Source: Promethearchaeota archaeon
GTDB taxonomy: Archaea > Asgardarchaeota > Heimdallarchaeia > Hodarchaeales > Hodarchaeaceae
Length of the DNA stretch: 64,000 bases
Direction: 5' to 3'
Assembly (NCBI GenBank): GCA_048938105.1
Contig: JBHLMN010000018.1
Span: forward strand, 64,001 to 128,000
Shown: one piece after another, positions 18,160 through 24,315 of the stretch
Layout: every line of letters begins with the position of its first letter
Numbering within the stretch: position 1 is the first letter of the stretch
The notes under the pieces: model-generated
Seen by the model: only the letters and a program-made list of their open reading frames with translations
What the model was told of the DNA's origin: nothing
Databases searched by the model: none
Made by a program: the position numbers and the translations under genes

Positions 18160-19887
18160 TTACTGATCTATCTGATTTCTTAACCTTTTTCTAAGGATTC
18201 TCCAATTAAGCACAACACATACCCCCCAGAGAAACCCCAAAACGGAAAAGGAGGCCTGGGTCGCCGTGGAGGAGGAAGGCTCAGGGGATGTCGAGGAAGG
18301 CTCAGGGTCGACAAAAACGAGCACCGTATCGTGGGTTGAGTGGTTTCCTTCATCCATGAGAACCAAGGTAAGATTATGGGTGCCTGTAGATAACCAATCT
18401 AAGGTAATAGTGAGATCAGTCGGACGCCAATACTTATCGAACGTGTGGGCACCCGATTCAATGGGTTTACCATCAAGATAGAGCGTGTATGACCCAGGCA
18501 TGGTGTACCTGGTGCGGAAATTATACCAGGTCTGCCAAATGAGGTTCACAGGGTCGTTAGAGCGGACATGTAGATCAGGGGGCGCGCTGAGGATGGGGGT
18601 CAGGCGAAAGCGCTCCATCCGATAGACCCCGTACACAAACTCTTCTGAGTTGTTGAAATCCATTTCCCAAACAATATCTCCCTCATTATTTACCTCAACT
18701 AATCTTACACCAATTATACCTGGACGTCTTATTACACCAAACGTTCCAAGGCGATTACCGTTGGGGAGGCGATCAGCATCCCCCCAATAAGGACTATAGT
18801 ATTCAGCAGGAGCGCTCCAGCTCCAGGTCTCGTTGGCGGTCATGGTGGTCTCGTTAATGGTGAATTCCAAGATCTGGGATCGCCTATGTTCAGGGTTGGT
18901 CTGGTTATGCAGGTCATTGTCGAACAGGATGAACGTGTGGTCACCGACCTTCTCTACGGCGTGCGCATGGTAAAAGAGGTTGGTTCGCTCCCTCCCATAG
19001 CGATCAAAGAGGGTAAAGTTCCCGTACTCCCCTAGCCCCCATAGCACCTTCCCCGTTTTGTGATCGATCTTGTAGAATGTGTTCACATTGCGCATATTAC
19101 AGTACAAAACGTCTTCCTCAGGATCCGAAAAAAGCGAATTGGTATGAGTGATATCACGTAGGCCTCTATTTAGATCCTTGAATGGGCACCACTGGGTATG
19201 GGAAATAAAAGAGTCTGTGTCTAAGGACCATACCAATTGACTCGACATATCATACTCCTCGATTCTGTCATAAACGTACTTAACTTCATTAATTTCCTTA
19301 ATATATACTTGTAATGTGAGAAATGTATTATTAGCATGATTATATTCATACTCGTGATGTCCATAAAAATTAAATATCATGGTTTGATCATTATAAACAT
19401 TCCACAAAGCTAAACCATCAGATTCCCCCATAATGACAGTTGTGGAATTAATAAACTCCACATTCTGACTCTGCGATGCTCCGATTTCACTATCGTTAAA
19501 AGTTTTCTCTATGAATATCTCTCCATTCATATCAGTGATAAAAAGAACACGCTGCCTGAAATTGGGATCAGCTGGTTTACGTAATCTAAGAACAAATAAA
19601 TTATAACCGTCAAAGACATTTCCAAAGAAGCTAACATTCAGAACCTCCTCTAGATAACTGTTATTCCACAATTGAAGGATTTTGTATAATAATTTACTTT
19701 CTGGATCTTCTTGTGGATCATAAAAGTTTTTATTTTCCATCTGAGGTTGATTAATGACTAATGTGACCATTAGATCACCTGTGTAAGTAAATAATGAGTT
19801 AGAAACAGAACTTGAACCTGAAATCAACAACAGAAAAAAAAATAAAATCATGTTTTTAGTCCTAAACCAAACCATAAATTTTCCCAA
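18160..19887 (-). CDS. membrane-anchored aryl-sulfate sulfotransferase (ASST, PAPS-independent)
   Basis: Signal peptide; GHHEYEY, DITHTNS, NMRNVN, HAHAV, ILFDN, WGDADRLPNGN; Ig-like domain, Ser/Pro linker, C-terminal TM + basic tail. Confidence 0.85.
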   Translation of the reverse strand: MGKFMVWFRTKNMILFFFLLLISGSSSVSNSLFTYTGDLMVTLVINQPQMENKNFYDPQEDPESKLLYKILQLWNNSYLEEVLNVSFFGNVFDGYNLFVLRLRKPADPNFRQRVLFITDMNGEIFIEKTFNDSEIGASQSQNVEFINSTTVIMGESDGLALWNVYNDQTMIFNFYGHHEYEYNHANNTFLTLQVYIKEINEVKYVYDRIEEYDMSSQLVWSLDTDSFISHTQWCPFKDLNRGLRDITHTNSLFSDPEEDVLYCNMRNVNTFYKIDHKTGKVLWGLGEYGNFTLFDRYGRERTNLFYHAHAVEKVGDHTFILFDNDLHNQTNPEHRRSQILEFTINETTMTANETWSWSAPAEYYSPYWGDADRLPNGNRLGTFGVIRRPGIIGVRLVEVNNEGDIVWEMDFNNSEEFVYGVYRMERFRLTPILSAPPDLHVRSNDPVNLIWQTWYNFRTRYTMPGSYTLYLDGKPIESGAHTFDKYWRPTDLTITLDWLSTGTHNLTLVLMDEGNHSTHDTVLVFVDPEPSSTSPEPSSSTATQASFSVLGFLWGVCVVLNWRILRKRLRNQIDQ

Positions 19888-20240
19888 GTTACAATCATTA
19901 TTTACAGCAATTATTTTAATTTCTTATGAGATATCTAGTCAATAGCCATTCTTGTTTTTATAAAAATACATCGAATCAATTATATTTTAGCTAATTTCTA
20001 ACATTATAGCAATTTTAGAGTTAATATTGCTTAAGAAAAGGCTTTTTGTTTGATTCTGAGGGTGAAATTCTGGTAATTAAAACACTCCAAATACTTTTGG
20101 AAATGTTTATTTCAGATATTGATAAATCAGCTCTTAATATGTTACTTAAATAAATGAAATACGCAATTAATATTCTGAAAAATTAAAAAAACACTATCGA
20201 TTTTTAGTAAAATCAATAATCAGTCTGGGGCTAATCGAAG

Positions 20241-20459
20241 ATGACGTCTGCTAAAACAGTTACAATTCCAGGGGATATAATAGAAAACATTCGAAAGCGG
20301 ATTAAAAAGAGTGCTTTCTCAACAGAAGAAGACTTTATAATATTTGTTTTAAGAATCCTTATGGAAGATAAGAATAAAAATTCAACTAATTCCGAGCCAT
20401 TTTCCGAGGAGGAGGAAGAACGTGTCATGGAACGATTACGTGGGTTAGGTTATCTATAG
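20241..20459 (+). CDS. small CopG/ribbon-helix-helix-like protein with C-terminal ERLRGLGYL tail
   Basis: TVTIPGDIIENIRKRI...FSTEEDFIIFVLR (RHH-like) followed by EEEEERVMERLRGLGYL. Confidence 0.75.
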   Translation: MTSAKTVTIPGDIIENIRKRIKKSAFSTEEDFIIFVLRILMEDKNKNSTNSEPFSEEEEERVMERLRGLGYL

Positions 20460-22138: not shown

Positions 22139-22188
22139 TCATATCCTAAAAGTTAAATTTATATTATTACTTCAAAGATGACGCTCTT

Positions 22189-24315
22189 ATGCGGAAATCA
22201 GTGAAAATCCTCCTAATTGCCAGTGTAATCATTGTTATCATTAGTATTCCAATAATCTTTATTATTTCTAACGTTTTGAGAATGGGGCAAAAACCTCCAC
22301 CATTTACTTTAGATAATGCTCCGGAACAAATCATCATTTCCCGAAATGATATAAGAAAGAAATTAGAAAATAATACCTTTTCTTTGGAGGAAGACAGCCA
22401 GATATTCCTTGATTTTAGCCAATGGATGGCAAATAATTGTCCTGATATACTAAACTTAGTCAAGAATTGGAAACAAACAGTCCTATTTGAAATTAAAAAC
22501 TCTACCTATGATATGTGGTGGATAATTGGAAATAATTCAGCTATTGTGGAAGTAGGTACAAATCCACCTCAAAATTACGGGCTGCTTATTAAATTAGACT
22601 TCAAAACCTTCACTGAAATACTCAGACAAGAGGAAACACCATTATCAGCTTTTCTGAAAGGGAATTTGATATATGAAGGTTCTTTTGATGAAGCGCTCAA
22701 AGTTGCTGAAATTACTAATATTGTAAGTGCAACTGTAATGGACACCTATACCCCAGCTATTCTAGGTGGGCCCACTTTTAAAATAACAGTAGATAAGAGT
22801 GAGCTATATGAAGAGGAGGGATTAACCCTCTTTCCATGCATTAGTGTCACCATTAATCCTGATCACATTGGAAAACTGCATAAATCTCTGATAGGACAGG
22901 GTTCTGTCATAATAGTGGACCAAAGAGGGAAGATAGTTGCAAAACTTGAAGATTCTTCACATTCAGTACATGAATTCATCAATTCAACTACTGTTATGAT
23001 GGGTGGACAAGAGCCTGGATATATGCAATTATGGAACTTCAAAGAGAATATTACTGAAACACTAGAAGTACCATGTGGACACCATGATCTTGATTATAAT
23101 CCAGTCTCGGACACTTTTATGGTGTTAGAGTACATCTATTTAAAGGAGAAATGGGGTAAAGACAATATCACTGTTACTTATGACCTTCTATCGGAATATA
23201 ATAGGGCGGGAGAGCTAGTGTGGCAATGGGATCCCAGTATTTTTTTCCCTTTCAACGCTACACGTTATACAAGCTTGGGTTTAAATGAAACGTTCCGCGG
23301 TGGAGCAGATTGGATGCATTCTAATAGCTTTGTCTGGGATAAGACACTTAAGGTCATTTACTTAAATGTTCGCAATCTTGACACGATCTTGAAGATTAAT
23401 TATACTACTAAAGAGGTGATTTGGGATGCTGGTCGTGGAGGGGACTTCACTTTACTTAACAAAGTAGGAGAAGAAGTAGATACTCTCTTCTGTCATCCTC
23501 ATGGTTTTGAACGGATAAGCTCTGATAGGTACATCTTATTTGATAATGACTTGTTTAATCAATCCAATCCATCTACTATGTCAATAGAAAACTCTACTGG
23601 ACACTCAAGGTTCTTAGAATTTGAAATAGACGAAGAAAACCATATTATGAGAGAGATTTGGTCATGGGTACCTTCAAATCAATCTTACTATTTCCCCGAA
23701 TCAGGAGGGGATGCGGACCGTTTACCAAATGGAAATACTATAGGGATTTTTGGAGATAAGGCTTTAATTCTCAATTTACGCGATCCAGTGATTCTTACAG
23801 AAGTAACCAAAAATGGAACAATTGCTTGGGAATTACAAATACCAGGAATGAATAACACTTTCTTCTGGGTGCACCGATTAGAGAGATTTTATGCAAAACC
23901 ACTTATTACCATTCATGATCAATCTATTGATTTAAGTGATGGATTTCTATGGATTAATCTTTCGACATGGAATACTTTTAAACAAGATGCAACCTTTCAA
24001 GGTATAATAAAAATAGTTGCGGATGGACAAGAGGTTTCTCAGGAATCATTTGAATTTCTGCCTCATTGGCAACCAACAACTTTCGAAATAACAGTCAATA
24101 ATCTCCCATCCAATGCAAAAGCTGTTGAAATCATTATCGAAAACAATGATGGGATCAGAAATTCTGTTATTATTTATGAAAAATCACAAAACGTCCTTCT
24201 TTCATATGGCCCAGTTCTATTCCTTATAGGAAGTGTATTGGTTGCTATTCCTGTTGTTATTGCATATGTGAAAATTAAAAGAAAGCGCGATATCCTAGAA
24301 CAGAATACTGAATGA
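22189..24315 (+). CDS. ASST arylsulfotransferase with N-terminal SCP2-like lipid-binding domain and TM segments at both ends
   Basis: N-terminal hydrophobic anchor; SCP2-like LLIKLDFKTFTEILRQEETPLSAFLKGNLIYEGSFDEALKV; ASST motifs GHHDLDY, DWMHSNS, NVRNLD, HPHGF, ILFDN, GGDADRLPNGN; C-terminal TM + KRKR. Confidence 0.82.
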   Translation: MRKSVKILLIASVIIVIISIPIIFIISNVLRMGQKPPPFTLDNAPEQIIISRNDIRKKLENNTFSLEEDSQIFLDFSQWMANNCPDILNLVKNWKQTVLFEIKNSTYDMWWIIGNNSAIVEVGTNPPQNYGLLIKLDFKTFTEILRQEETPLSAFLKGNLIYEGSFDEALKVAEITNIVSATVMDTYTPAILGGPTFKITVDKSELYEEEGLTLFPCISVTINPDHIGKLHKSLIGQGSVIIVDQRGKIVAKLEDSSHSVHEFINSTTVMMGGQEPGYMQLWNFKENITETLEVPCGHHDLDYNPVSDTFMVLEYIYLKEKWGKDNITVTYDLLSEYNRAGELVWQWDPSIFFPFNATRYTSLGLNETFRGGADWMHSNSFVWDKTLKVIYLNVRNLDTILKINYTTKEVIWDAGRGGDFTLLNKVGEEVDTLFCHPHGFERISSDRYILFDNDLFNQSNPSTMSIENSTGHSRFLEFEIDEENHIMREIWSWVPSNQSYYFPESGGDADRLPNGNTIGIFGDKALILNLRDPVILTEVTKNGTIAWELQIPGMNNTFFWVHRLERFYAKPLITIHDQSIDLSDGFLWINLSTWNTFKQDATFQGIIKIVADGQEVSQESFEFLPHWQPTTFEITVNNLPSNAKAVEIIIENNDGIRNSVIIYEKSQNVLLSYGPVLFLIGSVLVAIPVVIAYVKIKRKRDILEQNTE

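Follow-up and report, generated by a model that had tools for sequence, protein, structure and literature searches.

A conserved gene pair for a PAPS-type sulfotransferase and an SCP2-bearing, membrane-anchored arylsulfate sulfotransferase in Asgard archaea, and a possible sulfate relay across the membrane

The stretch of DNA analysed here (64,000 nt of contig JBHLMN010000018.1; hereafter the window, to which positions refer unless a locus is named) comes from a genome of 5.85 Mb that is 99% complete and is assigned to an Asgard archaeon because homologues bear the labels Hodarchaeales, Heimdall-, Thor- or Promethearchaeota. It carries, next to one another, the genes for a sulfotransferase (ST) predicted to use 3ʹ-phosphoadenosine 5ʹ-phosphosulfate (PAPS) as well as for a membrane-anchored arylsulfate sulfotransferase (ASST) with an SCP2-like domain (SCP2-ASST). 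We find that the two genes constitute a real, conserved two-gene module. The adjacency of the two genes is conserved, has been kept through rearrangements and is specific to one ASST paralogue, and for this reason the two enzymes are probably functionally coupled. The reading that we favour, with a probability of roughly 40%, is that ST and SCP2-ASST work as one module on a shared amphiphilic, lipid-tailed molecule, in a serial relay that would carry sulfate across the membrane. The features of the pair are as follows:

20990-22138, plus strand: ST, a Sulfotransfer_3 sulfotransferase of 382 aa (378 aa if the start is the ATG at 21002)
22139-22188, plus strand: spacer of 50 nt between ST and SCP2-ASST
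22189-24315, plus strand: SCP2-ASST, 708 aa, with trans-membrane (TM) anchor, SCP2 domain, ASST beta-propeller, immunoglobulin (Ig)-like sandwich and second TM anchor
22195-22284, plus strand: N-terminal membrane anchor of SCP2-ASST, residues 3-32, hydropathy 3.28, a helix in the model
22324-22740, plus strand: SCP2-like domain of SCP2-ASST, residues 46-184 (PF02036, profile match to 4jgx, fold match in the Atlas), predicted to be membrane-proximal on the outer side
22780-23889, plus strand: ASST beta-propeller catalytic domain, residues ~198-567 (PF05935), containing H298 H299, H377, R395 and H438
23902-24180, plus strand: Ig-like beta-sandwich stalk of SCP2-ASST, residues 572-664, seen as strands in the AlphaFold2 model and found also in the second ASST of the window, ASST#1
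24187-24279, plus strand: C-terminal membrane anchor of SCP2-ASST, residues 667-697, hydropathy 2.76, followed by a KIKRKRD tail

A preliminary description of this DNA had delimited ST, SCP2-ASST and ASST#1 as three open reading frames (ORFs), with a signal-less ST lying 50 nt upstream of SCP2-ASST on the same strand, and our analysis bears this out. Inside the spacer, about 27 nt before the ATG of SCP2-ASST, the sequence reads TTTATATT, which may be an archaeal TATA box and thus a separate promoter giving a leaderless mRNA for SCP2-ASST. Because of this possible promoter, co-transcription of the two genes is not assured.

The conservation of the pair was examined in 399 Asgard genomes searched for ST orthologues (E <= 1e-40), and linkage was established from the positions of ST and of full-length SCP2-ASST orthologues together with the fetched loci. 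An ST orthologue is present in 87 genomes and is single-copy in 86 of them. The pair is adjacent in about 20 Asgard genomes from at least four families, in three gene orders. ASST follows ST in this genome, in each of the four genus-mates with an ST and in all seven g79 genomes of family f31; at locus L027 the row reads ST, ASST, ATP sulfurylase, adenosine 5ʹ-phosphosulfate (APS) kinase. The two genes are divergent in six f3 genomes (G065, G055, G068, G073, G064 and G054; in the last, only the first 67 ST residues precede the contig end), and ASST comes before ST in G052. They lie within a few kb of each other in G088 and G388, and G315 has a row of permease, sulfurylase, PF01663 protein, APS kinase, CysQ-like gene and ST, followed by an opposite-strand hydrolase gene and then ASST. 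Within the genus, both genes occur together in five genomes, while 15 of the 16 genomes without an ST match also have no SCP2-ASST, G018 carrying an ASST that is cut at a contig end. Among the seven ASSTs of this genome, only the SCP2-bearing copy is linked to ST. The preliminary description had named the lack of such linkage in relatives as speaking against a relay; the linkage is in fact conserved across families and gene orders.

In a maximum-likelihood tree of 46 STs, rooted at the midpoint, linked loci fall on both sides of the root, so that at least three changes are needed, and the ST of the window groups with f31 and not with its own class. The tree conflicts with taxonomy (f1 groups with f31, and f3 and f4 group with Thor), which points to an exchange of ST, or of both genes, among Asgard classes. 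That the two genes moved together fits this picture, since linked loci occur on both sides of the root and the window ST sits with f31. On contig 32 of G065 (L077 1-3000), a second SCP2-ASST copy lies beside two decayed, divergent ST fragments of 76 and 116 aa; the pair seems to have been duplicated or acquired there as a unit, with later decay of ST.

ST matched Sulfotransfer_3 (PF13469) with an E value of 5e-22 and 79.7 bits against a cut-off of 27, and a profile search of this genome gave two PF13469 genes in total. Hydropathy and sequon scans of ST revealed neither a hydrophobic segment nor an N-glycosylation sequon. Both PAPS-binding signatures, GLARAGTT and RNPFDHIAS, are present, and in an alignment of 28 orthologues (48-82% identity to the window ST) the residues R70, G72, T73 and T74 of the 5ʹ-phosphosulfate-binding loop were invariant, as were the 3ʹ-phosphate-binding residues R213 and S221 of RNPFDHIAS. 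The AlphaFold2 model, with a predicted local distance difference test (pLDDT) score of 87.4, has the sulfotransferase fold, and Foldseek placed it nearest to the mycobacterial Stf1 (2zq5; 1e-7) and Stf9 (2z6v) and to tyrosylprotein sulfotransferases (TPST2, 1e-6). Stf1 and Stf9 are the closest solved folds at 12% identity, which does not imply their acceptors, and the acceptor of ST cannot be read from the modelled fold matches. As had been proposed before, ST is predicted to be a cytoplasmic PAPS-dependent enzyme; the presence of ATP sulfurylase, APS kinase and a CysQ-like gene in the operons of its orthologues supports the use of PAPS indirectly.

SCP2-ASST matched the Arylsulfotrans family (PF05935) with an E value of 5.5e-24; the two ASSTs of the window scored 85.3 and 89.9 bits against a cut-off of 24.2, and the profile search found seven PF05935 genes in this genome. 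A direct phmmer search of SCP2-ASST against the PDB gave an E value of only 0.25, too weak for catalytic residues, and a profile built from 38 orthologues (41-83% identity to the window protein) was used instead. Against solved structures this profile matched Cpz4 (9kf4, 6e-9), E. coli AssT (4e-5), the SCP2 protein 4jgx (7e-5) and 4uei (2.5e-3), and Foldseek with the AlphaFold model (pLDDT 88.8, predicted template modelling score 0.83) likewise returned Cpz4 first (2e-21) and then AssT (~1e-14). The motifs of SCP2-ASST are H298 H299, H377-x-N379, R395 and H436-x-H438, and H298, H299, H377, R395, H438, D452 and N453 are invariant in the 38 orthologues. For comparison with AssT we used its catalytic set H252, H356, R374 and the sulfo-histidine H436. 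H377 and R395 align with H356 and R374, and we read H438 as the putative counterpart of H436, in a register counted back from a shared FDN motif; all four catalytic positions of SCP2-ASST also align with Cpz4 in the 38-sequence profile. The HH, HxN and HxH motifs, which had been noted in both ASSTs of the window, are present in both.

An SCP2-like domain had likewise been proposed. The window protein itself reached 21.1 bits with the SCP2 profile, just below the cut-off of 21.3, and the full-length Foldseek match list was dominated by the propeller and uninformative on this region, so that the matter was settled by Pfam counts and by an Atlas structure search. PF02036 found matches in 36 of 38 orthologues, with a best E of 1.5e-8, and residues 47-185 matched SCP2 clusters in the Atlas with a template modelling score of 0.82-0.85 by target. 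In the model, the region consists of three helices, four strands, two helices, one strand and one helix, an order over residues 46-184 that we take to be typical of SCP2. Since the orthologue matches, the 4jgx profile match and the fold match agree, we regard the predicted SCP2 domain as real in spite of the score below the cut-off.

Hydrophobic anchors at residues 1-34 and 667-697, the basic KIKRKRD tail and 15 sequons suggest that the catalytic part of SCP2-ASST, with its active-site residues intact, faces outward and is held by two membrane anchors, in agreement with the topology proposed at the outset; by the positive-inside rule both termini would be cytoplasmic. The SCP2 segment occurs in one of the seven ASSTs of this genome, that of the window. 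An exhaustive search of 1.84 billion cluster representatives gave one full-length SCP2-ASST cluster plus fragments, all other matches beginning at about residue 237, and for this reason we consider the fusion to be a single family; every named member of it is labelled Asgard. One SCP2-ASST orthologue matched Alkyl_sulf_C. NCBIfam offered no informative family for ST, SCP2-ASST or ASST#1.

Some further observations concern SCP2-ASST relatives. In the closed genome G009 (L021 7446-9586) the orthologue occupies two ORFs, one of 538 and one of 180 aa, because of either a frameshift or an assembly error. Family f31 has a second SCP2-ASST paralogue (~45% identity; L079, L080, L075, L070 and L073), which adjoins a CrtC/AttH-like lipocalin without signal peptide; a FAD_binding_3 protein of the geranylgeranyl-reductase or aromatic-hydroxylase type is encoded nearby at the same loci, an isoprenoid-like context. 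A CrtC-like gene 59% identical to the f31 one is present, unlinked, on contig 2 of the genome analysed here.

Among known systems, the closest in logic is that of caprazamycin in Streptomyces sp. MK730-62F2, which comprises, according to Tang et al. 2013 as summarised in PMC4257720, the PAPS-dependent Cpz8, a triketide pyrone carrier and the ASST Cpz4, the donors of Cpz4 being made by the PAPS-dependent sulfotransferase. Cpz4 prefers sugar hydroxyls as acceptors (PMC13426309). This precedent had been correctly cited in the preliminary description (PMC4257720), and Cpz4 proved to be the closest solved structure. The Asgard pair resembles the caprazamycin system in that a PAPS-type sulfotransferase and an ASST are encoded together, and in that Cpz4 (9kf4/9kf6) is the best solved match to the Asgard ASST by both profile and fold, with aligned catalytic positions. 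It differs in that neither a type III polyketide synthase (PKS) nor another carrier synthase was found in the Asgard genome, in that the Asgard ASST, which is joined to SCP2 and has a predicted anchor at either end, is expected to lie outside the cell, with the two enzymes in different compartments, and in that its context is the cell envelope of an archaeon instead of an antibiotic gene cluster. Because of the lack of a type III PKS and the different compartments, we do not file the module as a Cpz8/Cpz4 member. With the periplasmic AssT of uropathogenic E. coli (3elq/3ets) the Asgard ASST shares the PF05935 beta-propeller, an extracytoplasmic location (predicted in the Asgard case) and the set of His, His, Arg and His residues. 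Unlike AssT, to which it is ~15% identical, it has no DsbL/DsbI partners, is membrane-anchored where AssT is soluble, carries an SCP2 domain and is linked to a PAPS-dependent enzyme.

An SCP2-like domain is also part of type III alkylsulfatases (PMC5426288), and SdsA1 and SdsAP (PMC5426288) are alike in having such a domain fused to an enzyme that acts on sulfate esters. Those enzymes are, however, metallo-beta-lactamase hydrolases with SCP2 at the C-terminus, whereas the Asgard protein is an ASST transferase with SCP2 at the N-terminal, membrane-proximal end. VNG1056C and VNG1057C of Halobacterium salinarum (PMC11980604), compared here by description, are similar in that surface glycans of an archaeon are sulfated through a lipid-bound intermediate on dolichol phosphate (DolP). 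The closest structure to VNG1057C is a sulfatase (PMC11980604), and unlike the Asgard pair, VNG1056C and VNG1057C have no described ASST partner.

In the serial relay that we favour, ST, acting at the inner membrane face, would sulfate an acceptor with a hydrophobic tail, and its product, if it is the donor for the ASST, would be an aryl- or enol-type sulfate. The sulfated product would then reach the outer leaflet, where the SCP2 domain could lift the lipid from the membrane and present it to the propeller; H438 would accept the sulfuryl group as sulfo-histidine, and the group would then be handed to an acceptor outside the cell, for which a sugar hydroxyl on a surface glycan or glycolipid is the likeliest candidate. 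Such a scheme would correspond to the Cpz8-to-Cpz4 logic of caprazamycin, divided across a membrane. We favour it because of the relation to Cpz4 together with the caprazamycin precedent, the occurrence of the pair in one row with PAPS genes, and the presence of an SCP2 domain that has a counterpart in alkylsulfatases. A more specific version, in which activated sulfate crosses the Asgard membrane without a PAPS transporter because an aryl- or enol-sulfate lipid charged by ST flips, is picked up by SCP2 and donates through the ASST to surface glycans or lipids, seems to us rather doubtful.

Several results weigh against the relay. A lipid carrier crossing the membrane had been postulated, and neither a carrier nor a flippase was identified: type III PKS (PF02797) was not found in this 99% complete genome nor among the conserved neighbours of the pair, and no gene for an enzyme that makes a carrier, or for a flippase, recurs next to the pair in the fetched loci. 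The described donors of ASSTs are aromatic (aryl) sulfates (PMC13426309), so that sulfated lipids of the alkyl or sugar kind would donate poorly to an ASST; established chemistry, too, suggests that sugar and alkyl sulfates are poor donors. Nor would a relay be needed for surface sulfation without a PAPS transporter, since Halobacterium sulfates a DolP-bound glycan (PMC11980604). ASST#1, which had been counted as a component of the relay, is a member of an expanded surface-ASST family in a variable, strain-specific island, outside the conserved pair. The linkage is also incomplete. In the g78 genomes of f31, ST follows sulfurylase and APS kinase with the SCP2-ASST copies on other contigs, and the pair is unlinked in G386 and G387. 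In Thor (f20), ST is present in 53 of 135 genomes and any ASST match in only 3, with no ASST in the 20 fetched Thor ST loci, and f17 orthologues of ST have no ASST nearby either. Four metagenome-assembled genomes (74-92% complete) have SCP2-ASST with ST not found, SCP2-less ASST paralogues are kept in other members of the genus that do not have this ST, and the neighbourhoods of ST are often glycan or glycolipid clusters. Of the relay as first described, the predicted compartments, the active sites, the SCP2 domain and the linkage have held, while the carrier or flippase and the role of ASST#1 have not.

As to the nature of a carrier, one locus may be mentioned. In G388 (L037 9063-11067), ST overlaps a downstream UbiA-family prenyltransferase gene by 14 nt, and the branch of that ST is very long. 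An acceptor that is prenylated and possibly aromatic, or a prenylated-quinol sulfate as carrier, is only an idea, with this overlap as its sole hint.

Alternatively, the two enzymes could act in parallel. ST would then sulfate a DolP- or lipid-linked glycan or a glycolipid inside the cell, which is subsequently flipped, and SCP2-ASST would grip, from outside, the lipid tail of that molecule or of a related one and add or move a further sulfate there, drawing on environmental aryl sulfates or another endogenous source; the genes would adjoin through a shared envelope target. Such an arrangement is possible, with the odds against it. It agrees with the Halobacterium N-glycan, which is sulfated at the DolP-bound stage (PMC11980604), and with the glycan and glycolipid contexts in which ST orthologues are embedded in Thor and f3. 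The recurring Thor cluster (L050-L065), present at many Thor loci and found without ASST, contains 2-4 B12-binding radical SAM genes, a polysaccharide deacetylase, UDP-galactopyranose mutase, glycosyltransferase family 2 (GT2) genes, a hexapeptide acyltransferase, a LuxE-like enzyme, an SDR protein and a CDP-alcohol phosphatidyltransferase, and its product may be a sulfated glycolipid. In f3, a cytidylyltransferase/GT28 fusion gene comes after ST at L042 and L043, with NeuB next in L042, which provides a context of NeuB and CMP-sugar synthetase. In the window, ST merely abuts a strain-specific glycan island, one that includes a Wzx-like flippase. Furthermore, six of the seven surface ASSTs of this genome are unlinked to any ST and therefore need other donors, and sugars and aliphatic alcohols can be ASST acceptors (PMC13426309). 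Parallel action leaves unexplained, however, why only the SCP2-bearing ASST tracks ST and why the pair stands in one row with PAPS genes in some genomes, and external aryl sulfates would be an unreliable basis for a conserved envelope modification.

The two genes could also adjoin without any biochemical coupling, through shared regulation or joint transfer of envelope genes acting on unrelated substrates. The unlinked arrangement in g78, G386 and G387 would agree with this, and the spacers of 50-142 nt, with the TATA-like element before ASST, permit separate transcription; since the genes have stayed adjacent through three rearrangements, in at least four families, with the link confined to a single ASST paralogue, we consider this explanation improbable. 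Some PAPS sulfotransferases are reversible with aryl sulfates, and a scavenging route in reverse, in which a lipid phenol bound to SCP2, loaded by the ASST with sulfuryl groups of aryl sulfates from the environment, returns to the inner leaflet for ST to run backwards from 3ʹ-phosphoadenosine 5ʹ-phosphate to PAPS, could draw on this and on the expansion of the extracellular ASST family to seven copies, but it is highly improbable, as genes for ATP sulfurylase, APS kinase and a CysQ-like phosphatase accompany that of ST time and again, so that PAPS appears to be made for ST and not by it, and no evidence was found for a returning carrier.

The remaining features of the region lie around the pair:

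18160-19887, minus strand: ASST#1, 575 aa (PF05935), anchored, without SCP2, first gene of the minus-strand glycan island
20241-20459, plus strand: 72-aa ORF in the gap upstream of ST, without a Pfam match at E <= 0.001
20667-20828, plus strand: ASST N-terminal remnant of 54 aa, found by tblastn against ASST#1
24354-26033, minus strand: anchored surface protein of 559 aa with two internal repeats of ~230 aa and no confident Pfam family

ASST#1 matched Arylsulfotrans with an E value of 2.2e-25, carries hydrophobic segments at its N and C ends and 12 sequons, and has the motifs GHH, HTN, HAH and FDN in the same order as SCP2-ASST, to which it is 32% identical over propeller, Ig domain and TM segment. 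The earlier observation that it is anchored and co-directional with the glycan cluster holds: it lies 44 nt upstream of the co-directional gene for a 1447-aa multi-TM protein of that cluster. It has no close orthologue, the best identity being 56% in relatives and 52% to a paralogue in the same genome. In four genus-mates the Hsp90 gene is the direct divergent neighbour of ST, whereas here an Hsp90 homologue lies at 1-366 on the minus strand. Because Hsp90 and ST directly adjoin in these relatives, about 700-20900 is extra in this genome. Within it, the glycan island of ~19-20 kb (700-19887, minus strand, ASST#1 included) is missing at this site in the four genus-mates; it encodes GT2, a WbuX-like amidotransferase, GT4, two giant membrane proteins, a deacetylase, a PF01663 protein, the Wzx-like flippase, an acetyltransferase and ASST#1. 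The GC content is 0.40 over ASST#1 and 0.31-0.34 in the flanks. The remnant in the 1.1-kb gap upstream of ST (tblastn E 0.002 against ASST#1; over 14 aa it is 71% identical to paralogue C56) points to a rearrangement at the junction or to an ASST gene that once lay there.

Downstream of the pair, the 559-aa protein is conserved beside it only in the closest relative, G003. It was considered as a further ASST and rejected, having joined the ASST cluster solely through transitive BLAST links.

The genes for sulfate activation and PAPS synthesis in this genome are on contig 52: ATP sulfurylase and APS kinase stand on either side of a PF01663 phosphodiesterase-like gene, inside another glycan-type cluster and some 5 kb away from the genome's second sulfotransferase. 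A PF01663 gene (type I phosphodiesterase/AlkP-like) stands between ATP sulfurylase and APS kinase both here and in G315 (L081 5262-6656; L035 4142-5521), and the PF01663 gene of the window (9942-11426, minus strand) is a paralogue of the one so flanked (27% identity, 3e-42).

In the literature searched, we found no paper that links Asgard archaea with either sulfotransferase type and none that combines Asgard, sulfotransferase and N-glycan, and a 2026 review of ASSTs leaves archaea unmentioned. The two-gene module is thus apparently unpublished. What is new is the combination of an ASST that is fused to SCP2 and anchored in the membrane at both ends, its conserved association with a PAPS-dependent enzyme and the Asgard setting. 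For nearly every prokaryote it is unexplained how sulfate esters arise outside the cytoplasm, and hardly any ASST has a known natural donor or acceptor (PMC13426309). Against this background, the module offers a defined, testable case, in which a PAPS-dependent enzyme and a surface ASST with a lipid domain are kept together across Asgard lineages, and Cpz4, the best solved relative of the Asgard enzyme, stands alone among ASSTs in being known to take its donor from a PAPS-dependent sulfotransferase. A lipid-mediated trans-membrane sulfate relay, if true, would be a mechanism not described in any organism. In eukaryotes, sulfation of secreted glycans depends on the import of PAPS into the Golgi; the relay would represent a new way of supplying energy to reactions at the outer membrane face, and it would be found in those archaea that are closest to eukaryotes. 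If the two enzymes act in parallel instead, the module would still point to an undescribed sulfated lipid or glycan on Asgard surfaces.

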